A DNA stretch of 64,000 nucleotides from Psammoneis japonica. Taxonomy: Eukaryota. Shown here in pieces: positions 3,300-52,591 of the stretch (position 1 is the stretch's first letter; every line of letters begins with the position of its first letter). Under the pieces are notes generated by a model. That model had not been told where the DNA came from and did no database searches. It was given only the letters and a program-made list of their open reading frames with translations. Made by a program: the position numbers and the translations under genes. The DNA lies in assembly GCA_008632985.1 (NCBI GenBank), contig QPGO01000070.1, positions 124,001-188,000 of the forward strand, written 5' to 3'.

Positions 3300-4526
3300 T
3301 TAGTAATTATCGTAATACAAGGATACTACAACATCTGCGATAAACACAAAAAGTGCAGTTATTGTTGCCAACCCGACCGCAATGCCGTCTGCGACAACTA
3401 CTCCATGTGCGTAGAGAGCCGCAAGGATGCCAGCACCAACTTTGCGGAGTTGACCCGACATTACCATCAACAACACACTTGCCAGTTCCACAGCGCCTAT
3501 CACAAGAAAAACACACATAAGGCTGAGAATATGCACGCAGGAAACTCGTAAGAATAATCCTGCATCACACGACGGCCCTCTTACCCGCAAGGAATTGCTT
3601 ATTTCGCACAGTCAAGTCTCCCAACAAATGGGTTCTTTCCCATACCGCATAATCTGGTCCATGCTTTCCAAATAAATTACACAAACTCGCAAAAACGCCA
3701 AACAAAACAAGTGCTACAGAAACGCCATCGACAAGCTGTGCATTCTCATAAAAGAACTTGACCACCGGTGGTTTTGGTTTATCCATCGATCCCGTCGTAA
3801 TGAGGTTGGTTACCTTTTCATCCAACTCGTAGGCACGTTGTAAAATCGAATCTTGTACCACTTGTAATTTCTCTCGTGCCATTTCTTCCACGCTCGCCGA
3901 TAGTTCCATGGCTCGTTGTCGTGCCACCTCTTCTGCCAGCGCTGCCTTTTGGAGTGCCATTTTTTGTATTTCGGACGTTGTGTTTTGTGCCGCGTTTTCC
4001 ACTTCTTGACGATAATCCAAAATTAACTTTTCCAAATTGGCCTGTTCGGCACGGGCGACCCGTAACGCTTGGGCCGCCATGCGATCGGCCGAATTTTCCA
4101 TCAAATCTCGAGCACGTTGTTTCGTTTCGTCCGTCATGACGACGGATGATTCCAATGCCGTTGTGGCTCTTGAAAAGACATTGTCATTGTTGTTGTTGCT
4201 CCGTTCTTTTTTGCGTGAAAATATTCTGGAAAACCTGCCGCGTTTCTCTGGTGTTGTTGGGGTTAGAGTAAAACTAGTATTGTCACGACGTTCCTTTGCC
4301 TCGCCGCGAGAAAATATGCCGCCACCTCTATGAATAGAAACAAAAGAAGAAAAAAAACGGTTTAGATTCACCAGAGAAAAATCAAACAGCTCTTTCTGCA
4401 CAGGATACTTAAAAACACGCACCTTGGGATTGTCAGGCGAGGAGCACGTCGAGAGTCTCCGTCCTGAAGCGCATTGCCACTGCATAAGTTTAACGTAAGA
4501 ATAAAGATGCATACAAGAGACTTCAT
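3300..4526 (-). CDS. Signal-peptide protein with coiled coil and C-terminal TM helices; predicted exons 4526-4423, 4327-3585, 3496-3300
   Basis: MKSLVCIFILTLNLCSG signal peptide. GT-AG introns of about 95 and 88 nt join the reading frames as IPR^GGG and FLAG^AVELASV. Confidence 0.75.
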
Positions 4527-5042
4527 TGTGTGTGTTGAAGTGCAATCAATATAACATAATAATATGATTAGCAAGGCCAACAAAAGTCAAACAATCAATG
4601 GGATTGCGATGATGTTGAAAAATAAAAAATGACAGGTGGAACGCACGCACGAACGCTGAAAATCATTCCCGCGTAAGATCCATTCCCGAACCGATGATTC
4701 ATTCGATCAAATAGGCCATATTGCCCTCTTTTTTGGATCTGCCTGCCAAGCAACATTACATTTATATAGATACGAGCTTATGCATATCATTTATATTTAG
4801 CGGGTATATACTTTATATATTGAGAAGGGCAATAATGTTTTTCCGTTGGAAATCAAATCTGAGTTGATCGTGTTTGTTTCGTTTTCGCGGTTGCTTGTGC
4901 GTGCGGCTTCCCATTTCTCGTTTTTCAAGTTAGTCGCAGCCGGAGTGAACCTGGTTATGCACAACAAAAGAGAAGGGATCTTTTCAACGATTGACTCTAT
5001 TTCAGTGCCCTGGTATTTACCTTTTTTTGCATTTGAAGCAAC

Positions 5043-7197
5043 ATGATGGAAACTAGCCCCGAAAATGGAACCGAAGCCACGAGCGGTGGAAGCTTTGATG
5101 ACATTGAGAGCAGCGGTAGAGTACCGCCGCGAGAGCTTCCCGTAGAGGGGGAGCACTCGCAAATGTCGGTGATTCCACCCGAAACCAAGAAGCGCAAATG
5201 GTTAATTGTTGGCCTAGTATTGGCCTTGGTGGTTTTGGTGGCGACCGTGATTGGACTGGCGGTGGGATTGTCAACGAACAATGGTGGAGGAAGCAGCGAG
5301 ACGGACAAGGCGACGCAAGGAAAGGGTGTTAGTACTCCTAGCCCAGCTCCTCCTCCTCCTCCTCCTGTGGATGAGACGAGACTCGGCGAGATCAAACAGT
5401 GGATTGTGGACAATCAGTACTCGACCGCTTCGTCTCTGGAAGATCCCAACAGTCCACAGAGTCAAGCGGCTCTATTCATGGAGACTGGTATTCTGGACGT
5501 GCCTACCGAAACTGTGTCGGCGTTTGCCATGGAATGGGTGGAGCGTTATGCCTTGGCCGTCTTTTTTTATGCCACGTCGGGCGATACCTGGAGAGGAAGG
5601 TTCAACTTTATGGATCAAAGTATCGGTAGTTGTCTTTGGTTCAATCTTGTCGAAGTATTACCGACTGTGTATTGGCCGTTTGGTGCCTATTGTGACCAGG
5701 GTCGTGTGCAACGCATCATTTTGCGTAAGTATAATACAATGTCCTTTTTGCTCGTGAATTTTCTTGGGAAAAAAGCTTACAACCATTGGCTACACTTGTT
5801 TTTCTCTGACTCGCAGCCAATAACAGACTTGCTGGTAGTCTTCCTTCAGAATTGGGTCTTTTGGAGGAATTGAAAATCTTGTTTGTTACTGTGAATCGGA
5901 ATTTAACTGGCGTGATTCCAGAAGAAATGCGTTCCTGTAAAAACATGGTCCTCTTTGAGGTGGATCGCTGTTCCATTACGGGAAGCATTCCCGAATGGAT
6001 GGGTGAGGAATGGACGGAGCTAGAGTCGCTTGCACTGACGGATAATCAAATGACTGGCACGCTTCCAACGACGCTGGCGGGTATGACCAAGTTGCGGCTT
6101 CTCTCCGTGGATGAAAACAAGTTCACTGGTGACTTGTCTGCTGTCGAAGCTATTACAAGTTTGGGATATTTGTACGCTGAAGAAAATAGCTTTGTACAAA
6201 CGATTGATGATACCTTTCTGAGTGGCCTGACCAATTTGAAGCAGTTGGATATCTCCGACAATGCTTTTGCGGGACAAGTTCCCGTTCATCTCATGTCCAA
6301 TCTTGCCGTGTTGGATGTGCATGATAACGAATTGACCGAATTCCCAGACTCAATTCCTGTCAATTCAACGCTTGAGTTCTTGGCAGTCCACAATAATTCC
6401 TTCACGGGCGCTTTTCCCAGATCCACCATTTTGAATTTGAAGGAGTTGGAGCATTTGGACTTGACCTCGACCAGCTTTACCGGAGATATGCCGACGGTTT
6501 TGGGAAATTTGACAAACCTCCGTTATCTATTCATGGCTGATACAGAGTTCGAGCCTGGTCCCATCCCGGACGAGTATCAGCGCTTGTTTGCGCTCAAGGA
6601 CTTGAGCCTGAAACATTCGAGGCGAAATGGTGTCATTCCAACCTGGATCGGTGATTTGGATCGGTTGGTCTTGCTCGATTTGCATTCTAATGATTTGAGT
6701 GGTCCCATACCGGGGGAGCAGATCGGGAACATGGGCAGCCTAGAATTTTTGCTCTTGAATCATAACAATTTCAACGGTACCATCTCGCCAGAGTTGGGTA
6801 TGGCGCTGTCTTTGCGTAAGTACTTAAGAAGGCAAGACTTGATTTGCGAGTTAAATTCTGAGACTCACCAAGCCCTTCTCTCTACCGCAATAACTTCTGC
6901 GGCACAGAACTCGTCTTATTGGATCACAACAACATCACAGGAAGCGTGGATCCCATTTGCGAGGAAGCTCAGAATCTAAATTTTGCAGCTGCTGATTGTG
7001 GAAGGGATGATCTTAATTGCACCTGCTGCGATGTGTGCTGCGGCGGAGACGCTGAGGAGCCATGCAATGATGGAGATTATTTGGCCCAGTATGATCCACA
7101 ATGGAAAGACACTTACAATCGACGAGGCATCTATGGGTTTGTGGATTTAAACATCACCCGCAGGCTTCTCATGGATGGGCGTCCTTGGAACATTTAA
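5043..7197 (+). CDS. Membrane-anchored leucine-rich-repeat protein (diatom LRR receptor-like family); exons about 5043-5724, 5817-6815, 6908-7197
   Basis: N-terminal TM, ERYALAVFFYATSG cap motif, many LxxLxLxxNxLtGxIP repeats, Cys-rich C-terminus (ADC..CTCCDVCC), gtaag donors at 5725 and 6816. Confidence 0.9.
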
Positions 7198-7550
7198 TCG
7201 TTGTGTGGCACGTGCACGTAATATATTTCTGTTTCGCATCGGTTTGAAGTAATCTACTCTCTCAGTAGAGCTAAGTTTTCTTAAGTTACTTACGGTACGG
7301 TAGTGCTTTACCCTACTGTACGATGCTACCCGTGTTCTTCTCACATTCTTCACAGGGATAATCCGACGAACGCCTCTCTGTTTTCCCCGATGCAATCGAA
7401 GCGTCGAACGCTGAAACAGTTCACACGGCACGGCCGCTGAATCGAAACGAATAGTATCTTATGTACCGCTGTTCGGTAGTTGCGCAGCAACGCAGTCCAG
7501 CAGAACATCTACTGTGTACCGGCAAGAACATGCTCTTCCAGGATAGCACC

Positions 7551-8560
7551 CTAACTTTCAGTATCCACCTCCTTCTCTACCATGAATGGTGGATGCACTT
7601 CCCGCACCCAGGGGACGATATCGAACAAGTGCAATGACTCGTAAGCATCATCAGGACCAGCCGCGTTCACTGCTGCAAAAATAGAACGGGGAAACATTTT
7701 CGGAGCCTGATAACCGGCCGTGCGGTACATCTCCCGTTCCTTGTTATAGTTGGTGCCTCCGAAGTCTTGAAGAATATAATCAGCGTTGACCGGTTCATCG
7801 TCGGCTTCATTTGCTTCATCACCTGAGTCATTAGGGATGCGGATGGCGATCTTTCTTATGTCTCTCCAGCGCTTCAACAGGTACTTGTCCAGAGGTCTGA
7901 CGTAGCACAGCGGGAGATCTTCGTCATACTCTATAGCACAGTGTCATTGTCATTCGTACTCAATTCTATTCGACCAAGAGGCATGTTCCAAATAGACAAT
8001 TCGTACTTTGTACTGACAAGGAGCGTATGAGCATCAATGCTGAGACTAACTGGTGAGCGTTCTTGTGATCTTAGTGTGCACACATCGTAGAACTGATCGC
8101 GAACCTTTTGTCCTTCTTCGTCACTCAAGTTCTCGGCAAAGGAGGTAAGCCGTTCGTATTCGAAGACGAAGTCTGACGTGCCGAGGCCCTGAAAATCAAA
8201 TGTTTCACTTGCTGTCGCGAGCCACCATCTTGTATAAACCACGTCACATTGCACTCCCAAAGTCCGTTCCACCTTGAACAGGCATCTGCATACTATTCAT
8301 TGTTTTTACGATCATAATCCACGTCTTCTCTTTCTCGAAGGTGGCAGAAGGGGTCTGCATCTATCACCACGGAATTTCCCACACTGCCATGTGGGGTCCG
8401 CTCCACGTCCCGTGGGGATTGTTTGGGTTCCTACAGCTAGGAGTCATCCCTGCACTCAGCAATCCATGTCTTCCATCGCAAAATCATCAAGCAACAGACG
8501 AATCCGATGATCTGGTGTATTAACATAATCCTTGTTTGGGCCGCCTTCCATGTACCGATA
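7551..8560 (-). pseudogene. Fragmented hypothetical coding sequence
   Basis: Consecutive protein-like ORFs 7931-8272 and 7551-7877 separated by stops. No family recognised. Confidence 0.35.
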
Positions 8561-8981
8561 AAACGGCAAAGAATCACCCGTAGGGGATAATAAGTTTCTC
8601 TTTCAAACGGCCATTGTGCTGCTTCGCCGATGAAGATAATATATATGACAAGCTACGCATGCCTCCGACGAAGGCTGTCGCTGACACAATGACAGATACG
8701 AGTGGACCCTCTTTTACCTTCTCATATTTTTGGTGCTCTTGTTAGTGGCGGCGTCATTGGCAGCAATTGTCGAATATGTGTCTTGTGTTTTGCTACCGCA
8801 TGGACGATGGGACCCTTGTTGTTAAATGTACGTAGACATCATCTTGAATGCACGTAATAGCAAAAAGAAGCATTTGCAGTGCATGATATTCCCTGTCCTA
8901 GTGGTAAGCTATAGCTCCAATGGCGATTCTTTCTTTTCAATCGCCATCGATTCCTCTCGTATGTATTTTCGGAGCTTCTAG

Positions 8982-9830
8982 CTAGCTACGCAGCATCGCT
9001 ACAGCATCGCACCGTCCATCCTTTTCCGATTGCTTCTTCTCCTCCACCACAGCCGAAGCCTTCGTTGTCAAAGTAGATTCCAACATCTGTTCCCACTCAC
9101 AACCTCGGCATGTGCATCCCTCGTCATGAGAAGAAATGGAGTCTTCGTCGTCGCTGCTGTCGTCAGCGCGGCTCGCATCAGAGCTACTTTCGGCCCTATC
9201 GCCGCCACCACCCTCTTTACCACCGACTTGATCATCATCTTCCTCCTTCCTTGCAGCAATCGACAATATACCACCTCCTCCAAATCGTGTCAATGCAGCT
9301 CGAGCTGCCAATTCCCTCGCTGGAATTGTCGCTTGCTGCGCCATTGTCGCTTTTCCCTCCTTTGTTCGCTTATCAATCATCTTGGCGCCCTTGAGGAGCG
9401 GGCGACGCTTTTCCTGTTGTTGCAGTGCCCTTGTTCCCATTGCCTGATCAGCGCTACGTTTCCTACTGCCACCTTTCCTCCAACGACGACGACGACGTCG
9501 TTTCTTGGCACCACATTTTTCATTGGAATCAAACAATGGAATCTCGCCATGTTGTGGCACAATCCCACTTGCCGCTTATTGTCCCACCGTAGAAACATGT
9601 CCCGATTGTGTCACAAACGCATTATCACATCCATACGTATCCGTTTTCTTTTTCAACCTCTCCATTCTTGAGCAAAGTCGAGTATTGAATTCGAATTTCA
9701 TCGAGCAATTCATAAAAGGCTGGTGGATGTATATCCTCCAATCCAATGGACGTGTGGGTAATTTCATGAAACATGACTCCCATGACTTGTGTTCCAATGT
9801 CCGAAACTGCCGACGCAGTGCTTGTTGGGT
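8982..9830 (-). pseudogene. WLM (Wss1-like) zinc metalloprotease, 5'-truncated by a LINE and frameshifted
   Basis: Joining frames gives RQFRTLE/QVMGVMFHEITH...IHPPAFYELLDEIRIQY, the WLM HExxH..H..FY pattern, followed by a basic/acidic low-complexity tail. Confidence 0.7.
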
Positions 9831-9849
9831 TCTTGTCGAAGATTGAGTT

Positions 9850-17843: not shown

Positions 17844-17849
17844 ACGGCT

Positions 17850-20353: not shown

Positions 20354-20830
20354 TTACTCGACTTCAGCGTCTTTCGAAGCTGGTGGGACTTGTTCCATAG
20401 GCTTGGCATTGCGCGATCTAGCTTCCATTTCACCCTCTTCCACGCCCTTTTTGAACTCTTGGGGTATTTCTTTGAATTCTTCCTTTAATCCGCCCGTGAT
20501 TTCGCCCGTCGATTTGGCAAGACTGGCCAGTCCTTGAGGTCCAATCACAAAAGCTCCGGCAATGAGAATGACAATCAATTCCGGAGCACCCAAACCAAAC
20601 AGTCCTTGGAGTCGTACAGATGTTCTCGCTCGACGTTGGTTAACGACATGGATTCCAACATGCTTCTCTCGAAAGGACTTTGGCCGAACCGAAAACGATG
20701 GTTTCTCATGTTGTGGTGGCACGCGCACCAATGGCGGTGACAAGACAAAAGCACAGCACGAAGGAAATGATTGAGCAACCACACAGACCGTTGCAACGAG
20801 CGCAATGAAATTTCTGTAAATCTGCATCAT
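20354..20830 (-). CDS. Plastid-targeted twin-arginine translocase TatA/B-family subunit
   Basis: Signal peptide ending CCA-F, transit peptide, then [22 protein letters not shown] and an amphipathic helix. Confidence 0.85.
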
Positions 20831-27323: not shown

Positions 27324-29937
27324 ATGGCAATGAACGCAACCCGTTTAGTCCGCTCGAGACTAACAAGAATTGCCGTGCTGGCCTTGTTTCCGATCTTGAA
27401 CCAGTTCTTTGTATGCGTCTTTCTGCTCGATCCATCACTGGAACAACATGCACATCATTTTCTGTCTCGTTGGAACTTTTATGAAAAAAAAGTTCCTTGG
27501 TTACAACGACCACGAACCATGTATGTAGAAGGCATGCCAATACGGCATGCTACTGCCAAACATCGAACGATTGATTCAGAAGAGTCAAAGAAACAAATAC
27601 AGTACGCCATTCCGACCGCACTTTGTGGGAACGAAGAGGAGGATTGTTTTGTCCCCGGAAGGTGGCAAGAAACCAACAATATGACGTGCAATTATCTTCA
27701 TGAAGTTGATTTACTGAATGCCAACGACCTCAACATTATCGGCAAGGGGGGCAAACGATTGGTGCTTTCCAAGGAAGATGTAAACGGCACAGCAATAGCT
27801 CTAAAATTGTTCAAGTTTCGAGCGGATCGCGACGACGATTTTGGACCCATGACGATTGAATTGCAGCGGCGTGATGCCTTGGTGCACGAACAATTGTCGT
27901 CGTCGCCGTACATTGTCGACCTTTATGGGTATTGTGGTACGTCTGCCATTTACGCCTTTGGCGACGGTGGTCAGTTGGGAGAAAACATTGAACGAGACGG
28001 ACCGATCCGAAAAGCGGAAGTGTTGCAACTGCGCATCAAATAGCTGCATCTGTGGCGGATTTGCATCATCCAGATGACGAGACGGGTCAACCCACTATTA
28101 TCCATTCGGATATTCACGGTGAACAATGGATCAAGGTGAATGGCAAGTACCAGTTGACTGATTTCAATCTTGCAAAGCTTGTAAAGCGATCTAAAACAAC
28201 AAATAAGAATATGCCGATTCGACGAGATGTGGTTGATAATGTGAGTGACTTTGCTGTACAAAGTGATATGTTATCTCTTACTTTGCGATCCTGACCGTTC
28301 TTCTTCGTATCCATTCTTTTTCCCAGTGGTTCTCTCCGGAGGTACACCTTCAACAGTACCATGCCGAAAATATTGGAACAGAAAAGATGGACGTTTGGAA
28401 CATGGGCAACATCCTTTACTTGATTCTAGTGGGCACTCCACCCTTTGACGGTCTGGGTCGCCAAGAGGGACATGCCTTGATAAAAGAGCACGAGCGTCCC
28501 GAAATTCCATCACAACTACGCAACAGCAAGGGTTTTGTAGTTCAAACCATGATTTTCGTGATCGACTGGTGCCTTCAAGAAGACCAAACCAAACGACCAT
28601 CTGCTCGCGAGGTTGCGGACTATTTGCGTACATCTATCAAGGTCCCCTTTGACTACAGAAGGGAAGCCTTCAACCGACCGAGACGTTTTCCGTCCGTTGA
28701 GGAGAGGGTCAAACGATACATGTCCAATTGGTATGTTCCACCTTGCGACTCTACTGCAACAATACAATATCAAATGTTGCACAGCGACGAAGACCAGCGG
28801 CCACGCGTATTGGTGAGAGAACTTGCCACGAATTACAAGCGTACCCATATTGTCGAAATTGACTCGGAGGTACAACAAGACACCATCATGATGGTGAACC
28901 CAACAATCTTGTCAAACGACAAGAAGGTTCCACACGCAGGCTACCAAGCCGATGTCATCCAGACCGCCTTGCCACTCTTGGATTCGTTGCAGGACAAACC
29001 ACTCTTGATGCAGTGGGGTGACCGAGTGTCGCTGCACTTGGATGAAGCAGAACCGTACGATTCGACACTTGCCATTCCCCACATGAAAAAGTGCCGGCCC
29101 ATCATTTCCAAAGTAGAACTCGAACGCATGACAGCAGCCACGTGTTATAGAGCAAACGACCGTCCACAGTCTAACACCGTTTATCGTCCTGGAGCTACAC
29201 ACGAACCTATTCTGTGGAAATTGGATAGTCATCGACTTATGGGTCCCATTGCTGATGCGATCGTTGCGGATAAGCCCTGGAGCGAGAAGCAAGCAAAAGC
29301 TGTCTTTCGAGGAAAGCTTACGGGACACGCCATGGATGCCAAACGCAACAAGCTCTTTGCGAAAGGCCCAATGAATAATGAAGAATATTGCAATGCCATT
29401 GAGCGCTGCCGTTTCGTTCTCGCGCATCACGATTCAAGTCTAATTGATGCGCGCCTCACGGATTTGCTCGGCAAGCCTCTGGATCCAAACATGATTGGCG
29501 TCGACTTGTTGGGTGAAAAGATGGAGCTCTACGAGTTGCTGGACTACAAAGTAATCATTATTCTGGAAGGCAATGATGTTGCGTCGGGTCTGCGTTGGGC
29601 CCTTCGGAGCGAATCGGTCGTCATGATGCCACCGCCAACCTTTTCGTCATGGGTTATGGAAGAGTTACTCGAACCATGGGTGCATTACATTCCATTGATA
29701 GATCCCAATTTCAATGATGTGGAGGAAAAGATGCAGTGGGTCTTGGCGAATGATGCAGAGGCGCAGCGAATCGCCCACCGTGGAAGTTTATGGATCAAAG
29801 ATCTTTTGGAGCACCCCGATTCAGAACGAGATAGTATGGAGATCAACAAGCAAATACTGGAGCGCTACCAGAAGCTCCTGGAACCCTCGGATCAGCTTGA
29901 GTCAATGATTGACGACTCCTCCGATCAATTTTTCTAG
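27324..29937 (+). CDS. Protein-kinase-like domain fused to a glycosyltransferase family 90 (CAP10/KDELC-like) domain; frameshift near 28032, intron 28241-28326
   Basis: Kinase motifs IGKGGKR, ALK, HSDI, LTDFN, SPE, DVWNMG and RPSA run in frame into the GT90 motifs PWSEKQAKAVFRGKLTG, LEGNDVASGLRW and LEPWVHYIP. Confidence 0.85.
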
Positions 29938-32053: not shown

Positions 32054-32426
32054 ATGGCTCCCCTCAAGATCGCTCTTCTCTCCGCTCTCGTTGCAAGTGC
32101 TTCGGCATTCAACATCATGCCCGCGTTCAACGCAAAGGTCGCAGCTCTCAGTGGTGCCTACGAAGACTACATGAACGCCCGTGCGAAAGAAAACGCCCCT
32201 CCCGCTCCGGCACCCGCGCCTGCTGCCCCTGCTGGTGGATCACTCTTTGAGGAATACATGGCATCCCGTGGTCATGATAGCTTCGGCGCCCGCTGCCCCT
32301 GCAGCAGCTGCTCCTGCCGCCGCTTCGTACTCTCCTCCCGCCGGTGGACCCAAGAGTGCCAAGCCACTTCCCAAGGTTGGCAAGGAACACCCTGCTTCTT
32401 CTTCGAACTACCTCGGAAGCTTGTAA
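32054..32426 (+). CDS. Small plastid-targeted Ala/Pro-rich protein; frameshift near 32278
   Basis: MAPLKIALLSALVASASA-F presequence and two (Y/F)E(D/E)YMxxR repeats. A second frame continues the APAA repeats to SNYLGSL-stop. Confidence 0.75.
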
Positions 32427-33042
32427 GGCGTACTTGGATAGCCAATAATTGGCATTCTACGGTTCTCATGAGGTCAGAATCCGCCTCTCAATTCATATCT
32501 GGGACGATAAGAACCATGCTTAGCGTAACGGTTTTCGAGCCGTTGTAAAATAGTTTATCAAGTGATTTGCGTACCAGGGTATACGTTATTCCCTAAGAGT
32601 CATGCATTTAAACCGCGCTTGAGTTCGCTTGTTGTTGTTACTGCTTTTGCTGTCGTTTCGAACTCTTTCGTCATCTGCCCCAGCGTTGGAACTATGCGAA
32701 CCCACGCGCGACAAAGCTAAAGGCGAGCGGTGATGGCGTGTGGCGTGGTGGGTCCTATCTAGTAGAAGTAGCTAGAGTTTCGACTCTAAAAAGCTATCTA
32801 GTAGGAACCTTTGCGGCAATCAGTCACTTCAGTTGCTCAAAAGATCTGTGTCCATTGGCAACCCAAACTTGAACGCCACAGTGTACTCTATTCTTCTTTT
32901 GCAACTAGGGTTTGGACTAATTGCAGCTTGATCTAATCAAAGACTGCGGATGATTTCCTATATTGACAAGGGACCTGCTACACTACTCTACATGTATTCA
33001 ACTGCAGTTTGTGATTAGCTTAAGTTAGAGGTGAAATCTCCA

Positions 33043-33827
33043 TCAAAACAAATCTTGAAGAAATCCACCTAGCATCTTTTTCTTGTGTTTCTTGGCCAGA
33101 GCCGCCTCAGTCTTGGCCATTTTCTTGGCATACTTTTGCGACTCCTTGACTTTGCTCTTTACTTCGGATTGAGCATCCTTGGCCATACTTTTTGCTTCCT
33201 CCAGCGCCGCCTTGGCCTTGTCAATAGCCTCCTGACTAGCGTGTTGCTCCTTGAGATTTGTCAGTTCTTCCAATTTCTCTGTTTCTTCCTTTGCAAGCTT
33301 ATCCACTTGTGTTTGAGCCTTGTTGGTTTGCTTTTCCAAGTCTTCCTTGTGTTTGGCAATTCGGCGTTCTACCGTTTCATTGTGCAAACGCGCGCGGTAC
33401 TTGTCGGCCACTTTGCGATTCACGGCAATTTGTTTCTTGGATTCGGCCGACAATTCAAATCGTGCAGCTTGCTTTCTCTTTAGCATATCCAGATATTCCT
33501 GATTTTGCTTTGATTCCTCCTTGCTCTTCTTGTCGTCGCCTCCTCCTCTGCTCGTTTAAATGGTAAGTCATACCAGCATAGTTGCGTTTTGCGTGTATGT
33601 GTGTGCAGAATTGTGGAAGCGTTCAAAACCAATCAGATATAGCTTTTTTCCTGAAAAACAATAAGACACAGATACAAAAAAGTCTCGTACCTTGGAACGT
33701 TGATCCGATCCACAACAAAAGTGCGCTGTGCCGCAGCAATTGCAGCAAACGAGGAGACGGCATCAGCACGACACGAAGCGACGCTTGCAAACACCAGCAG
33801 TAGCGCCATGGTTGTGGAGGCATACAT
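33043..33827 (-). CDS. Signal-peptide, Lys/Glu-rich coiled-coil protein; exons 33827-33691 and 33547-33043
   Basis: MYASTTMALLLVFASVASCRA. Intron gtacga...cag joins VPR^GGGDDKK in frame with ORF 33043-33486. Confidence 0.75.
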
Positions 33828-40965: not shown

Positions 40966-42289
40966 GCCGATGTGCAGAGACGAAGGAGTTGAGAAGAGAA
41001 TCGAAAGGGAACAGTGTGTGCAGCAACAATCACTTGGGGACACAGTGAGGGCAGAAACACAGAGAAACAACGTGCGATCGACATGGAAGGTGTCATGGAT
41101 GGATGGGAAGGAAGGATGGAATGGGCAGGGAGAGAAAATTGAGAAGACAGTTAGAGTCCACATTGATGGATGCAGGCGGCGATTTTGATCCAGAAAGTTG
41201 AATGACACACAATCCAGAAACCAAGGTGGAATCAAATGTGCACATGAGGCTTGTCGGATGGGGGGGGGGGCAAACAGCCAAATTGAGGAAAATGGATGTT
41301 TGTTGTTGAACATTTCAGAAAAGCTGACTTGACAAATCAGCACGAGATCTTGGATTGAAGGGAGAGAATATTGGGTTCTATTTCAAGAAATCTTGACAGC
41401 TGGTGCGACACCTGGATCATTGGCGTCCCAGATGCGGCGTGCTTCTAAGATCATCTGAATGATTGTTGCAGGTGCTGGGAGTGTCTTCCATCATGTTGTG
41501 TGGCTGATTCTGCTGCAAAGGTTTTGGCAATGGCTGGGCCACTTTTGCAACTGGCTCTGAGCTTGGTTCTTGTCTGGGCTGCTGGCCTTGTCCCTGCTGT
41601 TGGCTGGATGAGGGCTGGACTTGTTGAAATCACAGTTGACGGTTTTCTTGCTCATGGTGAATTGCGCTGCACTCTTGTCCATTTAAATGGACTGTCTCAG
41701 GTTTGGACACAAGTTGTTGGTTTGGGAACTCAAGCTGGAGTTGGGCTTGGGATGCAAGGCTTGCTGACCCCTTGATGCTTGACCTCATTTCTGGCTGCTG
41801 TGCAGTTGCATTGCAGTTTTGACAAGGTGGCAAAGACAAATCTGAATGGTCGATGTGGTGCAGACTCTTGCAGCATTGGACTTGATTGCTGAGACAGAGC
41901 CCACGTGGGTCATTTGATTTGACTTGGAAATTTCTCCATGATTTGCGACATCATGCTTTTTTGGACAATGACAGCCAGCTCCAATTCTGTGAACTTGGCA
42001 ACAGTCTGAGCATTGTCTTCTTCCAATGGCAATGGCGTGCAACCAATTGGATCATTGAGCTGATGGGTGCATTGCAAAAAAGGTTGGACAGCATCGTTCT
42101 GAGGCTTTTTGAGTGACTCTGCAACAACAGCCTTTTTTGGCATCTGCTGCAATGTCTTGGGACATTTTCATCAATGACACGACCTCTTCACATGCCACTT
42201 TGAAGGTGTCTTGGCTGCAATCTTTACACTGTTCAAGTGCAGCACACCTGGCAGTCACTTTTTGGCATGCCTGACAGGAGGCAGCCAAC

Positions 42290-45200
42290 ATCAGAGGTGG
42301 CAACACAGTGGTTTCCACTTTCCTTTGTAAAATTTTGAGTGTGCATTGTCAAAATTGTCAGCAAGCAACTTAAAAAATGCCAGCAAAAGTGCTTGACAAA
42401 ATGAAGCTGTTTTTTGCATTTCATCTGATGTCTCATTAACTTTTCTTGCACAAGCTTCAATCAAATGCATGCAATGTTCAAGTCAATCAGGAACAAAATC
42501 TGTTTTTTGTCATGCATGGTTTGGTTTCCTTTTGATCGCAATCAATTTGAACTTGGTTTTCACTTCGTCCTCCTCACTCACGTGTGTGTGTCTTTGCACG
42601 TGTGCAGCCTGCAGCAGCACTTCACACACGCACGTGACCCACCTTCATTTTTCTTCACTTTTGTGCAGCCCGTTGGGTCTGCGGCGTTTTCTGCATGTGT
42701 TTTGCACGCGCAATTTTCCACACATTTCACAACAGCACACGCTCTCCCCAAAGTTTGAAAAATGAGAGCGTGCGCTGTTGTGACTCACGTGGATCCTGCG
42801 TGTGGTCGCAAATCTGCAAATCGACAACCGGCCATGGCAGTGAAAGACTTTGCCCCATTGGCCGATGACAGCAGCTCAACGCATGGTGACACCTGCCATC
42901 CTTCTAGTTGGTCAAGATGGGGTTTTATTTGGGCGCAGCTTGAATTTTGTGATCCTGAGTGTGCTGTCATGCACACATGGCCGTTGCTGGTCACAGAATT
43001 GACCATGTTGTGCAGCCACACTTTCAGCCACAGAAGTTGCAGAGGTGCTTTCATTCACAAGAGTTGGGAGCTGCTCCCCAAAACATGTGATGCAGCATGC
43101 ACAATGACAGAGACAATGACAAACACCACACATTTCATGTGTTGGCATGCCCTGCTGTCTTTCACAGCTTTGAAATGTCAAGTGTGGACACTTGTGATCA
43201 ATGCTTTTGTTGTGCATCCTCATGAGCTTTGACAGTTGTGCAGAATTTTCTCAAAGAAAACAACCACCTGTGCTGCTGCTGCAGCTTTCAATGCACTCCT
43301 GGACAAGAGCCCCAGCACCTCAAACAGAGCAGCTGCACAAGGCAGCTGGATCAAGAATCAAGAAGATGGCTCCAACAAAGAGATCACACAGACAAAAAAG
43401 TGATGAAAAAAGTGCTGCACTGTTGGGTTGTGAGACTCGACTTTGCCAAACAGTCAGCACTGACCTCATGCATGAATCCCCAGCCAATGATGTCCTGCTC
43501 CTTGGAAGAGGCAGCCCCCCATGCCACAACACAATTGCTGGGGAGCATGCAGACAATGTGCACACAAGAACACATCATGCACCACCTGCAATGCCCACCT
43601 GACTCTGCACCTCCCGACACACCCTGGATCACTGCATCAGAGCATGCAATGTGGTGATCATCACACATTTTTCATTGTGATTTTTGTTCCTTTCACAGAC
43701 AATTTTTTTGTGGTTTCAAACCTCACCAGTTGTGCAGCTGGCAATGACATGTCAACTGTGATGGATTGACATTTTTGTGCTGTGGGATCAGAACCCCCTC
43801 CCCATGAGAAAAAATGTTTCACCATGAAAAAGGGACACGTTTTCCCCATGAGAGTGCCCACCCTCCATCCCTGCAAAACCTGTAAATTAAAATCATTTGC
43901 ATTGCACCATGAACATTCCATTTTGTTGTTCACAACATTCAAATTAAATGACGCCGACGGAGACAACACCCCAGAGTCTGCAGCAATTGCAGCTCACTTT
44001 CTTCAAGTGCCGCTGCTTGCAGCCACCTTGTTCATTGCCAAAAAAGTGCAAAATGCGTTGTGAGAGCACAATGTGGATGAACTGACACCACCAACAGGAA
44101 CAGCAACACAGACTTGCCGGTGCATCCGGCGCCGCCGATTCTGGAGCAGGTGAGTTTGTAGCAGCTGCTGCAGTTCTCTTTCTTGAAGAGCCACTGCCAG
44201 TGCCAGCAGCCACCTTGTTCATTGTCGAACGGTGCAGAAAACGTTGTGAGAGCACAACAAAGATGAGCCAACCACAACCAATGGAGACGTCAATGCACAG
44301 ACTTGCCTGTGCACCCAGCGCCGCTGATTCTGGACCAGGTGAAGCAACACTGCTCTGATCCACCTCATTCATTGCAAAGAAGTGCAAAATGCTTTGTGAG
44401 AGCACACAGGACAACAACAGCAATCAATTGAAACCGCAACACAGACTTGCTGGTGCATCCACCGTGGCCAATTCAGTCGCTTCTGCCGCCGGTTCCCGAC
44501 CCCTTGAAGCCGATTCAGGACCATGTGAAGCAACATTGCTCTGATCCACCTCATTCATTGCAAAGAAATGTGGGGTGCTTTGTGAGAGTGCACGGGACAA
44601 CAACAGCAACCAATTGAAACCTCAACGTAGACTTGCAGGTGCACCCGCCACCGCCGCCGATTTGGGAGCTTCTGCCACCGGTTCCCGACCCATCGACATG
44701 GAATTGGCAGCTGCCGTGGTTGTTGCAGTCGACCCCCCCTGCTGCTCTTGATCACAAACAGTGGAGAGACTTGGGAAGCCTTTAAAAATGAGCCCAACAA
44801 CTCAGGCAACTTCCAATGGGTTGCCTCCCCACTCTCTGCCTCTGCAGTCTTTCTGGATCTGGGTGCAGAAATTGGAGAAGACGGGTGCAACGTAAGTGAA
44901 CACATCAAAAACAAGTGAAGCTTCTCTTTTTGTGCATGCCTTTTTTGAAGAGTGTCACACATGGCAAAGAACTTTTCACATGTGTGATTCTGAGAGCTGC
45001 AGGAACAAGCACCGCCTGCAGTCTTTCTGGGTCTGGACACAGAAATTGGAGAAGACGGATGTGTTGTCAGCGAATGCATCAAAAACCAACGAACCTCTTT
45101 TTGTACATGCCTTGTTTGGACAGTGCAATTCATGGCAACTTGTGATGATTCTGGATGCAAAACTCTGACATGCGTGATTGCAACAATGCTGCAGAAAAGT

Positions 45201-45955
45201 GAGTTTGTGACATGCATGCACACAACACACAACAACATGCCAGCAGCTCAGCATTCTGGATGCGGCAGATTCGTGACAGCACACTCGCGATCACAAAATT
45301 CAAGCTGCGCCCGAATGAAACCCCATCTTGACCAACCAGAAGGATGGAAGGCATCACCACACATTGAGCTGCTGTCATCGGCCAATGGGGCAAAGTCTTT
45401 CACCACCATGGCCGGTTGTCGATTTGCAGATTTGCGACCACACGTGGGATCCACGTGAATCACAACAGCACGCGCTCTCGTTTTTCAAACTTTGGGGAGG
45501 AGAGGGTGTGCTGTTGTGAAATGTGCAGAAAATTGCACATGCAAAACACATGCTGAAAACACCGTAGACCAACAGGCTGTGCAAAAGTGAAGAAAAATGA
45601 AGGTGGGTCACGTGCGTGCGTGAAGTGCTGCAGACTGCACACGTGCAAAGACACACACACGTGAGTGAGGAGGACAAAGTTAAAACCAAGTTCAAATTGA
45701 TTACGATCAAAAGGAAACCAAACCATGCACAACAAAAAATGGATTTTGATCCCAGCTGAACCAAACATTGCATGCATTTGATTGAAGCTTGTGCAAGAAA
45801 AGTTAATGAGACATCAGACAAAATGCAAAAAACAGCTTCATTTTGTCAAGCACTTTTGCTGGCATTTTTTAAGTTCTGCTTGTTGACAATTTTAACAATG
45901 CACACTCAAAATTTTACAAAGGAAAGTGGGGGCCACTGCATTGTCGCCTCTGATG
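42290..45955. mobile_element. Element bounded by inverted arms of about 680 bp (42290-42970 and 45275-45955)
   Basis: cactttcctttgtaaaattttgagtgtgcattg at 42316 vs its reverse complement near 45895-45928. Similarity is continuous across the arms. Confidence 0.75.
44020..44640. repeat. Internal degenerate tandem repeat, about 4 units of 150-190 bp (mirrored at about 48480-49090)
   Basis: Recurring ttcattgc..a...tgtgagagcaca...cagacttgc..gtgca.cc. Confidence 0.75.
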
Positions 45956-46941
45956 TGCTGAAGCACGTGCGCACTTCTTGCTCCTGGGACCAAGCCAAAG
46001 ACAAGATCAGACGTGTTCCAGCCGCACGTGAACCAAATCGTGCACAAAAACGACATTTGCGCGATTTTTGCGCGGTCCCTAACTTCCGATCGAACTTTCA
46101 CCACCAAAAGTATAGATTTATACAAATGTGGATGTTTTGAAACACTAACAAGACTCGTGTGAGTGTTGCAATATCATTGTTATTGTGGTATCTATGTTTT
46201 TCATTGCGTTAAGAGATTCGTAACACAACGGATGATTTTCGGCGAAAATATTGCCGTTATTCGCATGTTACCTAAATATATATTTCTACAATGCTACTTG
46301 GTAGGTTTTCTACCTACAAAGAAATCTCAGTATAAATATACTGACGAACAATCAGTATTGAGTCTACTGAGGAAGTTTATGATATTTACCCATGAAGACT
46401 TGAATACCCCTCAAAAAACTATTTAAATGCTCATACTCTAGAAGCCTATAAAAGTCAATCCGTCTAAGTATTTTATATGAAAATGATTCATACACTAAAA
46501 GATATATAAATTATGTTCAAAATCGATTGTCGTTTTGTGCGTCACCTGGGACTGGAACACGTCATCAGTGCTGGGCTCTCAGGGCAGAGCCCTGCACACT
46601 TTGAGTTGGCCAAATTTGACAAGACACTGGCAAACTTTCCCTTTTTGTTGCTGGCTGCTTCCCAAATGTTGGCAACAGGGGGCAGATCTTCTTGCTCCAA
46701 AGACCAAAGAAAAAAAGTTTTGGGAAGGAAAATGGCGTGCAGTGCTGGGGCTCAGATTTGGATTGCAAGGGACATCAGAGGCAGCAACATGGTGGTTTTC
46801 ACTTTCCTTTGTAAAATTTTGAGTGTGCATTGTCAAAATTGTCAACAAGCAGAACTTGACAAATGCCAGCAAAAGTGCTTGACAAAATGAAGCTGTTTTT
46901 TGCATTTTGTCTGATGTCTCATTGACTTTTCTTGCACAAGC

Positions 46942-47324
46942 GACAGGTTCTGGGTGGGACTTTTTGTGACATTTGCCCCGTAGAATGCTGCGTGTGAGCT
47001 CTGCAGTTTGTGCTCTGGTCAATGGACATGTTTGTCTTCGACACAAAAAAAACGGCCAAGTTTGCAGTGCATGTGTCCCTGTTCGCACTCGAGGTTTTGG
47101 ACAATGCGCCTGCCCTGCGCCATTCTTAAGACACTCGAGAATGGCGTAGAAGAAAAAAATGTTAAAAGTTGTTCAATGGACAGCCTGACAATTGTGCTAT
47201 AAAATCATACAAAATTTTGCCAAAATCACGTAGAAATGTACGTGCGCGACATGCGGCGCGATTCAAAAAACTGTCGATGTCACAGTTCAGCAGTGCAAGG
47301 TCCCACCCAGACCTGGAATGCGTC
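46942..47324. mobile_element. MITE-family copy inserted in the right IR arm, TSD AAGC
   Basis: Empty site cacaagcttcaa at 42449. Filled site cacaagc|gac...gcgtc|aagcttcaa. Confidence 0.88.
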
Positions 47325-50164
47325 AAGCTTCAATCAAATGCATGCAATGTTTGGTTCAACTAGGATCAAAATCCATTTTTTGTTGTGCATGGTTTGGTTT
47401 CCTTTTGATCGCAATCAATTTGAACTTGGTTTTAACTTTGTCCTCCTCACTCACGTGTGTGTGTCTTTGCACGTGTGCAGTCTGCAGCACTTCACGCACG
47501 CACGTGACCCACCTTCATTTTTCTTCACTTTTGCACAGCCTGTTGGTCTACGGTGTTTTCAGCATGTGTTTTGCATGCGCAATTTTCTGCACATTTCACA
47601 ACAGCACACCCTCTCCTCCCCAAAGTTTGAAAAACGAGAGCGCGTGCTGTTGTGATTCACACGTGGATCCCACGTGTGGTCGCAAATCTGCAAATCGACA
47701 ACCGGCCATGGCGGTGAAAGACTTTGCCCCATTGGCCGATGACAGCAGCTCAATGTGTGGTTGTGCCTGCCATCCTTCTGGTTGGTCAAGATGGGGTTTC
47801 ATTCGGGCGCAGCTTGAATTTTGTGATCGCCAGTGTGCTGTCACGAATCTGCCGCATCCAGAATGCTGAGCTGCTGGCATGTTGTTGTGTGTTGTGTGCA
47901 CGCACATCACAAACTCACTTTTCTGCAGCGTTGTTGCAATCACGCATGTCAGAGTTTTGCATCCAGAATCATCACAAGTTGCCATGAATTGCACTGTCTC
48001 CAAACAAGGCATGTGCAAAAAGAGGTTCGTTGGTTTTTGATGCATTCGCTGACAACACATCCGTCTTCTCCAATTTCTGTGTCCAGACCCAGAAAGACTG
48101 CAGGCGGTGCTTGTTCCTGCAGCTCTCAGAATCACACATGTGAAAAGTTCTTTGCCACATGTGACACTCTTCAAAAAAGGCATGCACAAAAAGAGCTTCA
48201 TTTGTTTTTGATGTGTTCACTTACGTTGCATCCGTCTTCTCCAATTTCTACATCCAGATCCAGAAAGACTGCAGAGGTGGAGAGTGGGGAGGCAACCCAT
48301 TGGAGGTTGCCTGAGTTGTTGGGCTCATTTTTAAAGGCTTCCCAAGTCTCTCCGCTGTTTGTGGTCAAGAGCAGCAGGGGGGGTCGACTGCAACAACCGC
48401 AGCAGCTGCCAATTCCATGTCGATGGGTCGGGAACCGGTGGCAGAAGCTCCCAAATCGGTGGCGGCGGATGCACCTGCAAGTCCACATTGAGGTTTCAAT
48501 TGGTTGCTGTTGTTGTCCTGTGCACTCTTACAAAGCATTTTGCATTTCTTTGCAATGAATGAGGTGGGTCAGAGCAATGTTGCTTCACATGGTCCTGAAT
48601 CGGCTTCGCGGGGTCGGGAACCGGCGGCAGAAGCAACCGAATTGGCCATGGCAGATGCACCAGCAAGTCCATGTTGCAGTTTCAATTGGTTGCTGTTGTT
48701 GTCCCATGCACTCTCACAAAGTGTTTTGCACTTCTTTGCAATGAATGAGGTGGATCAGAGCAGCGTCACTTCACCTGGTCCAGAGTCAGTGGCGCTGAAC
48801 ACACAGGCAATTCTGTGCATTGATGTCTCCATTGGTTGTGGTTGGCTCATCTTTGTCATGCTCTCACAATGTTTTCCACACCATTCGGCAATGAACAAGG
48901 TGGCTGCCAGTGCTGGCAGCGGCTCTTTAAGAAAGAGAGCTGCAGCAGCTGCTGCAAACTCGCCTGCTCCAGAATCGGTGGTGCCGGATGCACCAGTGAG
49001 TCCATGTTGCTGTTCCTGTTGGTGGTGTCAGTTCATCCACATTGCACTCTCACAACACATTCTGCACTTTTTTGGCAATGAACAAGGTGGCTGCAAGCAG
49101 TGGCACTCAAAGAAAGTGAGCTGCAACTGCTGCTGCAGACTCCAGGGTGTTGTCTCCATTGGCATCATTCAATTTAAATGCAAACAACAAAATAGAATGT
49201 TCATGGTGCAACGCAAATGATTTCAATTTACAGGTTTTGCAGGGACAGAGGGCGGGCACTCTCACAGGGAAAACGTGCCCCTGTTTCATGGTGAAACATT
49301 TTTTCTCATGGGGAGGGGGGGTCTGATCCCACAGCACAAAATGTCAATCTGTCACAGTTGACATGTCATTGCCAGCTACACAACTGATGAGGTTTGAAAC
49401 CACAAAAAAATTGTCTGTGAAAGGAGTGAAAATCACAATGAAAAGATGTGTGATGATCACTGTGTTGCGCGCTCTGATGAACAAGACGGAAATGTGACAC
49501 ACACCAGGAGCCCTTCACCGACATCCAGACACAGGGTGTTGACATTTTCATCAAATGACTTGTCTGAGCACTCTGGGTGAACAACGCCCCCGCAAGGGCA
49601 GTTTTGTGCTGACATGGCCGTTCAGAACAAAATTCACAGAACCAGAAGATGTCAGATGGGTGGCTTCATGTGCAGAAGCTGCTGAGGTCAAGGCAGACAG
49701 ATGGATAGAATCGATGGGGAGCAAATTTACCATGCCCTGTGGCGCCAGATGACAGTTACAAAGTGGTTGAAAAGAAGTTGACTGACAATCGAATTCTTGA
49801 GCCAAAGTGAGAGATGAGCTTTAGAACCGCGTTCTCAAAGGTCCACGTAGGGAACACGTAGACGACCTATTGAGAGATCTTGAAATGACTTATGGATGAC
49901 CCTTTATCAGTACTGTACATACTGTAGGTTGCAGTCAATGCATGGAGATCGCACTGTACTGCACCTACTACTTAAGAGCAATGAGAACCTTGGACAGAAT
50001 CGAATCCGAGCCATAAGAAGCCATAAGTCATTGGTAACAATTATGGCGTTGATGTTAACAAACACAGGGATAATAGGCCAGGTGGTGAGTCACACGGCAA
50101 AAACTCCAAAACACCAATTCCAAATTTTCAATACAAGGAAAGCATCAGCCAAGCAGAACACACC

Positions 50165-51410
50165 ATGACGACGCCGACGAAACTCAGCACTGCCTTCGTA
50201 ATCCTTTCAATATTGTCAGGTGCATTCTTTTACCTCCACCATGAGAGAGAACTTTGGCAAGCTAAAGACGAATCATCCCTCACCCTTGTACACGACGATG
50301 CGAACCACTCGACATCGAACTTCTCGTACCTCCTCGATACCGTCGACCAATCCACACTCGCAGAGCTGCAAGAAAAGTTGCTGCATCCCAAGCCTCTACT
50401 GGTTTACGCTGGGGTCAATTCATCCAAAGTCGATTTCGTACCAAATCAATTTCTGCATTTGCGTCACATGAAGACGGGGGGAACATCCTTGGAAAAGTTG
50501 ATTCGGTGCGGAATCAAACGCTTACAGCCAACAGCACCCCCAATGAAGACACTGCATGCTTGTCACGAGACTGAATATCGTCCATGTTGGACTGGACAAG
50601 ACGAGGTATGCCTCAATTCCGTAAGACAGGCGGCCGTTATGAGTTTCTGTGCTCCCTTGTGTGATTTACAAAATCCTTTCCAGTGGCTAAAGAACGGTAC
50701 TACACCCAGCAGAGATGATGTCTTGACATTGTCGAATAATAAGGCTTCCCCACCATATGCTGCCGTGACGGTTCTGAGACACCCCATTGATCGTGTCTGG
50801 AGTATGTATCGATACCAAACTCAAAAATGCTATCAATGTCGAACGCTAAAAGAGGTATACGAAACATCGACAGAAACAAAAGCAGCAACGTGACAATGAT
50901 GAGTAATAGCATTGACAATGACATTTGCAGTGTTCAGCTCGTAAATCATCAGACACAGAATCTGCTGTTGCTTGATGAAAATGTTGTCAGGGGTAATGAC
51001 TTGCAATTGCAACAAGCTGTACAGAATCTGAAATCCTTCTTTACCATTGCAGGACTCACGGAAGAGCTAGCAGTGACGGCGCAAATGATTGGTAAAGTAT
51101 TTCCTTGGCTTGCGGAACGCGTTTCAATTGACAATATCACCGACATGATGCGCGCCGTTGACGACAATGGAAGCATCAACACTCTACCACCATCATCATC
51201 ATTATTCTCCTCGAAGCGCAACAAGAAGCTGAGAGAATGTCCCTTGACGCACGCCAACAAGTCACCTCGCCACAATCCTGTGGCAAACTACCACCAAAGC
51301 CAGATGCGGAAACTGAAAAATTAATTCTTGAGCACAATCAACTTGATTTACAACTCTACAATGCAGCCGTTCAGCACTTTGAACTCCAACGAGCCGTGTC
51401 GGGCATATAA
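50165..51410 (+). CDS. Golgi-type sulfotransferase-like protein; frameshifts near 50862 and 51275
   Basis: N-terminal TM, HMKTGGTS (5'-PSB), TVLRHPIDRVWSMY (3'-PB), GLTEEL, HNQLDLQLY. Confidence 0.82.
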
Positions 51411-51754
51411 CGATTCCTTATTTAAGCGCGAGCTTGATCACGACGAAAAAAGTCGTTGGTCTGGAATTTAACGTCGTCCTTGTCAACAGATAGCTACATG
51501 TACTCTACCGTATTGATAGAGAGTAGCTACCGGTACTTCTAGATAGCTAGCTAGAGCAAAACTGACGTGGGCTACCCAAGAAGCGACTTTCTGCTACGTA
51601 CGACTATGTTGTCTAGAGTAGACCATGACAAACGACACTATGTGCTCGGGAACAGCAAATAACTTGTAGTCCTACAAACGCCAACTCCCTCTCTGCTAGA
51701 CTATTACTCGCGTTTGAGCTCAATCCATCCGTGACCCGCAGACGAGTCTTCTCT

Positions 51755-52591
51755 TTAATACATGACAAAGCTCAAAACGATAAACATGACTGCAATAAGA
51801 TACACTCCCATTTGTGCCACAACATCAAGCCGAACATTACCAACCCGTACAGCTTCGTCCGACAATACGATTCCAACCACTTGCTTGGCTACATTCACAA
51901 CTTGACCAAGCTTGTCGTCTAGTTTCAAGTCATCCAAATCCACTGGTACTTTGGTTGCTTTTTTGTTCGTCGTTGTCGTCTTGGTGGAAGCGGCGACACG
52001 TTTTCGTTCACTCTTGGCAGCCTTTTCTGCAACTCGCGCATTTTGCACCACTTGTTGTCGTGCCAATTTTTCCGATTGCATCCTGGCCAATTCCAATTTT
52101 CGTTTTCGTAATTCAGCCTTTTCTTGTTTCAAATCTTGTTCGGTAGTTTTCTTTTGAGACATGCTCTTGACAACCATGGAGGGAATCGAGAGCGCAAGAC
52201 TGCCCGATACCGTGCCGCCTCCGTTGTTGTTATTATTTGCTTCTAGTTGCTCAAGGCGTTTCTCACGGTGTCGTTCGCGTTGCTTTTCATTAATTTCACG
52301 TCGTAACTCACGTTGACGATTACCCAAGGCATAATCCAAGCCATCACGATCGTCCAAAGAGCCTCCTCTATAAACGTGGAAGGTGTTTTGTGTGTTGATG
52401 GGTATAATAAGAAAACATTGAAAAAAACACATCACACATCATAGGTACAGAGAGATACCCAAGAAACTATTGTATAATACATACCTCGGAACCGCAGTCG
52501 AGAACGAATGAGTATAGTGGTTGGGCGTGGCTGCGGTAATCTTATTGCCAACAAGAAGCACTAGCCCAACGACACAAGTTTTCATCATCAT
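51755..52591 (-). CDS. Signal-peptide coiled-coil protein with C-terminal TM; exons 52591-52485 and 52367-51755
   Basis: MMMKTCVVGLVLLVG. Intron gtatgt...tag joins AVPR^GGSLDD in frame with ORF 51755-52435. Confidence 0.75.

Follow-up and report, generated by a model that had tools for sequence, protein, structure and literature searches.

This work indicated that three genes in a 64,000-nucleotide (nt) stretch of Psammoneis japonica DNA (GenBank assembly GCA_008632985.1, contig QPGO01000070.1, positions 124,001 to 188,000 of the forward strand; this whole 64-kb stretch is called the window below) carry one motif, (I/V)PRGG, across the junction of their first two exons, with a phase-2 intron lying inside the Arg codon. 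From the DNA letters, protein libraries, AlphaFold models and published tables on which our analyses drew, these genes most likely encode helical or membrane proteins directed to the periplastidial compartment (PPC), with a presequence that would be cut after Gly-Gly. Import into the PPC of diatoms, cryptophytes, haptophytes and apicomplexans uses SELMA, a recycled machine of endoplasmic reticulum (ER)-associated degradation (ERAD) and ubiquitin. The complete reading, namely a PPC-type presequence ending in (I/V)PRGG and cut after Gly-Gly, PPC-resident helical products, an inherited intron and local paralogy of the three genes, has in our estimate a probability of about 0.6.

The three genes indeed share one plan. 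At the junction, with splice sites marked by ^, gene 1 reads ATC CCA AG^gt..ag^A GGT GGC, gene 2 GTT CCA AG^gt..ag^A GGA GGA and gene 3 GTT CCG AG^gt..ag^A GGA GGC. The exon-1 length equals 2 modulo 3 in all three, each intron being therefore of phase 2 within an AGA Arg codon. Every N-terminus has a charge-free hydrophobic core within its first 25 residues and small residues before a plausible cut, as assessed heuristically with no trained predictor. A spacer of 15-27 residues, net positive in all three genes, separates the signal peptide from I/V-P and the RGG, which occupies residues 36-38 (gene 1), 47-49 (gene 2) and 37-39 (gene 3). The first helix comes after the motif, only 3 residues away in the AlphaFold model of gene 3, and the common layout continues with long helices and, in two of the three, C-terminal membrane helices. 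The gene 2 acceptor (33548-33553, minus strand) is a tandem GAG-CAG; splicing at its upstream AG would place an additional Ser ahead of the RGG, which would itself be kept. Splicing of gene 1 is supported because its homologue, the library protein P0057, reads contiguously across the junctions, and the homology-verified 107-nt phase-2 intron (53738-53844) of a neighbouring DDI1-type gene indicates that introns of such size are normal here. On re-reading the sequence, the coordinates, exon lengths, intron bounds and junction codons given by the first-pass annotation all proved exact, and so did its phase-2 intron in the Arg codon at (I/V)PR^GG. Its gene 1 was right in exon 1 and intron 1 but too short, since at 288 residues it had stopped at a read-through stop inside intron 2; once intron 2 and exon 3 are added, the product has 347 residues and three hydrophobic segments. 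Its description of the products as coiled-coil proteins holds as far as the long helices of the AlphaFold models and no further, and Pfam returned no domain match above cut-off for the gene products tested.

Many reference PPC proteins close their transit-peptide-like stretch with xRGG, as genes 1-3 do. Supplement file 4 of ASAFind 2.0 (PMC12136025) holds 70 PPC reference and candidate sequences from Thalassiosira pseudonana and Guillardia theta, in which RGG was counted by eye over the first 100 residues of the entries that TargetP calls as having a signal peptide (SP). RGG was enriched, being present in 12 of the 40 SP entries versus about 0.8 expected (about 0.02 per protein). The T. pseudonana share is 5/23, with GRGG in sCdc48-2 and IRGG in sSec14 (RGG at 71-73 in both), LRGG in sDer1-1 (58-60) and TrxH (50-52), and ARGG in sCdc48 (50-52). 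The G. theta share is 7/17, with RLRGG or LRLRGG in Cdc48, EF-1alpha, 14-3-3, RRM1 and CyP (five RLRGG, four of these full LRLRGG), SLRGG in ugg-t and PLRGG in Ubc8. In two further Thalassiosira entries, whose N-terminal models are faulty and over-long, the motif is FPRGG (sPUB) or IPRGG (homologue of the SELMA deubiquitinase ptDUP, where it lies about 20 residues before the catalytic Cys box). In the reference entries RGG stands at the expected presequence end, preceded by a hydrophobic residue and often followed by an acidic start of the conserved part. Genes 1-3 have the arrangement of this xRGG-presequence class, with RGG 35-95 residues from the start, hydrophobic sequence before it and a mature part after it. 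A separate observation concerns Phatr2_43938 from Phaeodactylum, in the plastid scoring set (PMC12136025, file 9), in which Phe follows the signal-peptide cut and ..QPRGGS comes 16-20 residues further on; given this protein, the RGG motif may not be strictly limited to PPC residents.

A cut after the motif is documented for one of these proteins. Thalassiosira protein 21460, the ptDUP homologue, is represented in the published N-terminome by one N-terminal peptide with start residue 233 and 2 acetylated spectra (Huesgen et al., 2013; PMC3774753, Table S5). A hand count on its sequence places IPRGG at residues 228-232, and the mature protein therefore begins directly after Gly-Gly. As the residue before this N-terminus is neither Met nor Arg, it is neither a translation start nor a tryptic artefact. 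The paper itself discusses neither PPC proteins nor ubiquitin. The first-pass annotation had put forward the idea of RGG as a cleavage signal that resembles the ubiquitin tail, belongs to the SELMA and complex-plastid pathway and marks a compartment; this idea is supported by the 12 reference entries and by the N-terminus of 21460.

In the window, the motif is exclusive to the three genes. The DNA pattern CCNAGGT-N(30-400)-AGAGGNGGN matched three times when both strands were scanned, the matches being genes 1-3. Contiguous PRGG was found in none of the six reading frames of the window, and scans relaxed to accept any RGG on or close to a GT..AG junction that follows a signal-peptide-like start returned no window locus beyond these genes. 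With 200 first-order Markov simulations of the window as null model, the full context (a hydrophobic upstream open reading frame (ORF) and at least 150 open codons downstream) arose in 0/200 simulations, versus three times in the window.

Conservation at the protein level was indicated by the homologue of gene 1. An exhaustive HMMER library search with exon 2 of gene 1 gave three matches (P0055, P0056 and P0057), of which P0057 (305 residues, library E 1.2e-5) was the only full-length homologue found; its pairwise comparison with gene 1 gave E 5e-12 at 27% identity, and E 1e-22 with all three exons. P0057 too begins with a signal peptide, and its spacer, rich in Thr and Arg, leads to IPRGG at residues 37-41; in both proteins the motif is followed by G-I-F. 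According to the AlphaFold model of P0057, the motif belongs to a disordered stretch that runs directly into a 131-residue helix. P0055 seems to be an exon-2-only reading of another genomic copy and ends at the position of gene 1 intron 2, and P0056, an 886-residue repeat protein matching query residues 158-200 only, was left out of the alignments. Other searches were negative: the word-index search for exon 2 of genes 1 and 3, the ESM Atlas for gene 1 and P0057, metagenome contigs for the gene 1 family alignment and P0055, and genome contigs and viral contigs for gene 2 and P0055. The wobble bases of the motif differ among genes 1, 2 and 3 (CCA/CCA/CCG, GGT/GGA/GGA and GGC/GGA/GGC). Because these synonymous positions differ and P0057 keeps IPRGG, the motif is, as judged from sequence, constrained as protein.

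The presequences were also compared with known sorting signals. Where bipartite PPC signals are described in Moog et al. (2011; PMC3101018) and in the ASAFind 2.0 paper (PMC12136025), they consist of a signal peptide, as predicted for genes 1-3 too, and a short, mostly basic or hydroxylated stretch. There, the transit-peptide-like part is called 'not conserved and poorly characterized' (PMC3101018), PPC sorting is defined only by the residue after the signal-peptide cut with no mention of an RGG end motif (PMC3101018; PMC12136025), and ASAFind scoring takes in only the 25 residues around that cut (PMC12136025). The spacers of gene 3 and P0057 are transit-peptide-like, being Ser/Thr/Arg-rich and free of acidic residues. 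Cleavage at the diatom stromal site likewise removes the second half of a bipartite presequence, often with acidic residues after the cut, but its consensus over 63 sites (Leu at -2 with Ala/Ser at -3, position -1 being small or charged and the cut being followed by Met/Ala/Ser) contains no Arg-Gly-Gly (Huesgen et al., 2013; PMC3774753). No [AS]-L-x/[MAS] stromal context was found near the mature start of genes 1-3, and an ASAF-like ..SS/F.. occurs in gene 2 only, given an unusually long signal peptide. A stromal transit-peptide cleavage site was dropped as a candidate, its motif being different.

With the ubiquitin tail, the motif shares Arg-Gly-Gly and, in Thalassiosira 21460, the cut after the second Gly; four Guillardia PPC proteins have the six-residue tail. 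No ubiquitin fold was found before the motif in genes 1-3, where there are only the spacer residues (predicted disordered in P0057) and no Pfam match. Genes 1-3 and P0057 have Pro at the position of ubiquitin Leu73, several reference PPC proteins having Leu or Ile. Pro in place of Leu73 makes ubiquitin resistant to many deubiquitinases. Double-glycine sites with no ubiquitin fold are also cut after GG by cysteine peptidases, in the leaders of bacterial C39 peptidases and at the LxGG sites of coronavirus PLpro; the likeness lies in a linear x-G-G/ site, and these systems are bacterial or viral, with no link to plastid import. Where the Toxoplasma PUBL paper (PMC5487736) deals with an RGG before the ubiquitin-like domain, it labels this a 'potential deubiquitinase cleavage' motif and reports it as neither processed nor required.

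Mechanistically, the presequence of genes 1-3 would consist of an ER signal peptide, the net-positive spacer and (I/V)-P-R-G-G before the first long helix, this bipartite structure being presumably coded by exon 1 together with the first codons of exon 2. The protein would cross the second plastid membrane via SELMA, and the presequence would then be cut C-terminally of Gly-Gly, with predicted mature starts G-I-F.. (gene 1), G-D-D.. (gene 2) and S-L-D-D.. (gene 3). The products would be PPC-resident long-helix proteins, of which two would have an anchor in a PPC-facing membrane, and the candidate protease is a ubiquitin-tail-specific peptidase such as ptDUP.

Several points weigh against this scheme. 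The intron models of genes 1-3 are predictions from sequence, the motif count is that of the 64-kb window and not of a whole genome, genes 2 and 3 have no known homologues (gene 2 being outside the searches of the large protein libraries), and the proposed paralogy is drawn from architecture alone, between products with no detectable homology. The proportion of 12/40 covers PPC entries only, with neither full Phaeodactylum sequences nor a matched secreted control set, and these entries are BLAST-found homologues of localised Phaeodactylum proteins, not localised themselves. Table S5 of the N-terminome has a peptide for one of the 12 PPC identifiers looked up, the other 11 being absent. The same table gives N-termini at residues 57 (RGG..) and 58 (GG..) of Thalassiosira 24761 and at residue 40 (GG..) of Thalassiosira 3153, which would fit a cut before GG if these were proteins of this class, and which could represent related or alternative processing at RGG sites (PMC3774753). 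At 15-27 residues, the spacers are shorter than in the Thalassiosira references (RGG at residues 50-73); those of genes 1 and 2, although net positive, contain two Asp each, and no lysine is present in the spacers of genes 1-3 or P0057. Transit-peptide lysines are reported as necessary for SELMA import in Phaeodactylum, according to the summary of that work in PMC5487736; the reference proteins TrxH and sCdc48 likewise have no lysine before RGG. Lastly, the PPC rule, as formulated where PMC3101018 treats sorting, is that the first residue after the signal-peptide cut is neither aromatic nor Leu. Plausible cuts, placed with no trained predictor, give Ala in gene 3, Asp or Cys in gene 2 and Asn or Leu in gene 1; should the cut in gene 1 and P0057 fall before Leu, this rule would point to the stroma and not to the PPC.

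With regard to their origin, genes 1-3 lie on one strand within 49 kb and have a common exon plan, similar size and a helical architecture. BLASTP detected no mutual similarity among their exon-2 products, nor did hhalign when the family profile of gene 1 was compared with genes 2 and 3, and the nucleotides of exon 1 and intron gave no alignment beyond the motif. Introner-like repeated introns were ruled out, the introns being dissimilar. In an all-against-all comparison of window ORFs, only the duplicate of gene 1 and the repeat region described below matched. This duplicate is a decayed tandem copy that keeps the exon-1 end ..ATC CCA AG^GTGC; its intron-1 acceptor AG is lost, it shows in-frame stops, and two stretches are deleted, one of about 150 nt in the helix region and one of about 35 nt. 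Next to gene 1, its neighbour on the downstream side is duplicated too (154-369 versus 3041-3250). The window has 15 ORFs of at least 250 codons, and PPC proteins are predicted to make up 0.7-1.3% of diatom proteomes. Because three such genes cluster on one strand beside a recent duplicate of gene 1, an old local duplication with fast divergence of helical, low-complexity sequence is favoured, and genes 1-3 are probably ancient local paralogues that diverge fast, and not genes that received a shuffled exon. The term 'unrelated' in the first-pass annotation thus stands as regards detectable similarity and yields, as regards descent, to old paralogy as the simpler account. We propose that the shared phase-2 AG^A intron position was inherited, independent intron gain at the AG^A site being possible.

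The first-pass annotation had instead proposed a shuffled exon, that is, a single presequence exon that carried the RGG signal along as it was distributed among unrelated genes. Among the alternatives this keeps the most credit, and we consider it rather unlikely. It would account for the identical intron position and phase in genes with dissimilar downstream parts, and a gain of presequences by way of introns has been suggested both in diatoms and in PEXEL genes of Plasmodium, as set out where Sargeant et al. (2006; PMC1431722) treat gene origin. However, the motif straddles the junction and its Gly-Gly is encoded in exon 2, so that exon 1 alone cannot bring the motif, contrary to what had been suggested. 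In addition, the signal peptides, spacers and introns have no common sequence, and the genes are clustered on one strand with a common helical architecture, gene 1 being demonstrably duplicated locally. Shuffling is not supported, because of the Gly-Gly in exon 2 and the lack of nucleotide similarity.

PEXEL genes of Plasmodium falciparum nevertheless offer a parallel. In the gene-structure data of Sargeant et al. (2006; PMC1431722), many dissimilar genes likewise open with a small signal-sequence exon and an intron whose phase is constant, and where exons 1 and 2 meet they encode a brief sorting motif that a protease cuts; the two models given for their origin, ancestor radiation and presequence acquisition, are both left open. 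Of 396 such genes, 93% have a phase-0 intron, and it lies before the motif (PMC1431722), whereas that of genes 1-3 is in phase 2 and splits it. By their (I/V)PRGG, their phase-2 intron and their different compartment, genes 1-3 do not belong with the PEXEL genes, and the likeness is one of layout only. The PEXEL motif has the form RxLxE/Q/D.

It is still less probable that the motif is a structural feature of one divergent family, for instance a helix cap or a linker, that was retained through descent and serves neither sorting nor processing. P0057 and the decayed copy do show descent of the motif within the gene 1 family, and genes 1-3 are known from sequence alone. Yet the segment that holds the motif is predicted to be disordered and to lie outside the helices, the same motif occurs in functionally unrelated PPC proteins of two phyla, and it is a real cleavage site in one PPC protein, Thalassiosira 21460.

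We attach an equally small probability to an ordinary secretory pro-peptide site, unrelated to the plastid and cut by an Arg-specific endoprotease as P-R/G-G. Cleavage between Arg and Gly in P-R/G-G would be of thrombin- or metacaspase-like specificity. A signal peptide with a short pro-region is a classic layout, and the GG.. N-termini at residue 58 of Thalassiosira 24761 (R before) and residue 40 of 3153 would agree with it. However, the single N-terminus that can be placed beside IPRGG begins after GG and not after R, and the PPC motif family varies at the Pro position and keeps RGG. Plant vacuolar sorting pro-peptides of the NPIR type bear a general resemblance only. N-myristoylation of the exposed Gly was dropped, since the residues do not match its consensus and the compartment is not the right one.

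A last alternative is a chance coincidence helped by proto-splice-site bias (AG^GT..AG^R). In its favour, the DNA pattern taken by itself is not especially rare (mean 0.33 matches per simulated window, with 2/200 simulations reaching three), and AGA makes up 21% of Arg codons. This alternative is already effectively refuted by the full-context result (0/200 against three), by the Pro before and Gly-Gly after the Arg, which belong to no splice consensus (probability about 1.8e-4 given Arg; about 1e-6 per position for a chance IPRGG), and by the retention of the motif in P0057.

Table 1. Coordinates of the three (I/V)PRGG junction genes, the decayed copy of gene 1 and the gene divergent from gene 3 (window positions).
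Feature	Position	Strand	Description
Gene 1, exon 1	4423..4526	minus	104 nt; ATG 4526; signal peptide and 16-residue spacer, end ..IP and AG of Arg codon
Gene 1, intron 1	4328..4422	minus	95 nt, GTGCGT..ATAG, phase 2; junction matches contiguous IPRGG of homologue P0057
Gene 1, exon 2	3585..4327	minus	A GGT GGC (finishes Arg, then Gly-Gly); disordered FSR-rich stretch, long helix, first hydrophobic segment
Gene 1, intron 2	3497..3584	minus	88 nt, G^gtaaga..gatag^GC; P0057 alignment spans junction (E 1e-22)
Gene 1, exon 3	3300..3496	minus	two more hydrophobic segments; stop TAA 3302-3300
Gene 2, exon 1	33691..33827	minus	137 nt; ATG 33827; signal peptide and spacer, end ..VP and AG of Arg codon
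Gene 2, intron	33548..33690	minus	143 nt, GTACGA..GAGCAG, phase 2; tandem NAGNAG-type acceptor
Gene 2, exon 2	33043..33547	minus	A GGA GGA..; 167-residue Lys/Glu-rich protein with no membrane segment
Gene 3, exon 1	52485..52591	minus	107 nt; ATG 52591; signal peptide and Ser/Thr/His-rich acid-free spacer, end ..VP and AG of Arg codon
Gene 3, intron	52368..52484	minus	117 nt, GTATGT..TATAG, phase 2
Gene 3, exon 2	51755..52367	minus	A GGA GGC..; helices from 4 residues into exon; C-terminal membrane helix
Decayed tandem copy of gene 1	~380-1434	minus	78% identity over aligned columns
DDI1-type aspartyl protease gene	52899-54280	plus	divergent from gene 3, start codons ~300 nt apart

Other features of the window were recorded. 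The best named library matches of the DDI1-like gene are diatom proteins, with identities of at most 52%, which agrees with a diatom source that has no near relative in the library. The ORF at 20357-20830 (minus), which we take to be TatA/Tha4-like from its ..GLFGLGAPE.. motif, has a diatom plastid-type leader, with a signal peptide and then ..CCA/FVLSP.., and is the classic ASAFAP-type example in the window. The ORFs at 32054-32548 (plus, ..ASASAF..) and 58654-59142 (plus, ..CMSF..) have a signal peptide followed by Phe and no RGG, and their products are probably plastid-targeted. A repeat-rich block at 42236-49444 contains a large inverted duplication, with arms at about 43.7-45.9 kb and 46.8-49.4 kb that are 84-99% complementary, a third partial copy at 42.3-43.0 kb and internal tandem units of 171-186 nt, related pieces being found at 13.3-15.7 kb; it is possibly a transposon nest. 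The ORF at 28387-29937 (plus) encodes the C-terminal part of a protein kinase domain together with a glycosyltransferase family 90 domain, an unusual fusion. Finally, 352 N at 60661-61012, an assembly gap or masked stretch, lie within an apparent ORF.

Bipartite PPC signals were already known; the RGG end motif, its predicted cut after GG and the intron fixed within it appear to be new. In the literature searched, subscription papers aside, no account was found of a conserved RGG end motif, of a cut after GG or of an intron within the motif, the sole relevant mention being the unused RGG of the Toxoplasma PUBL paper. The protease that removes the second half of the PPC targeting signal is given as unknown where PMC3101018 and PMC5487736 address it, and ptDUP is the obvious candidate because its own Thalassiosira homologue is cut after IPRGG. 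More tentatively, xRGG might mark the end of PPC presequences in general, as LRLRGG in cryptophytes and as (L/I/P)RGG in diatoms, with a ubiquitin-tail-specific peptidase as maturase; the transit-peptide-like region would then end in a mimic of the ubiquitin tail, and the SELMA deubiquitinase ptDUP would be the candidate maturase. If this general signal exists, the motif and the phase-2 intron in its Arg codon could help to predict PPC proteomes, and presequence removal would be mechanistically linked to ubiquitin-dependent translocation. A conserved RGG cut site would name a candidate protease, explain why the PPC keeps a deubiquitinase and provide a second, independent feature for predicting this hard-to-predict class of proteins. 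Genes 1-3 would then enlarge the list of candidate PPC proteins by three, of which two would be membrane-anchored long-helix proteins.

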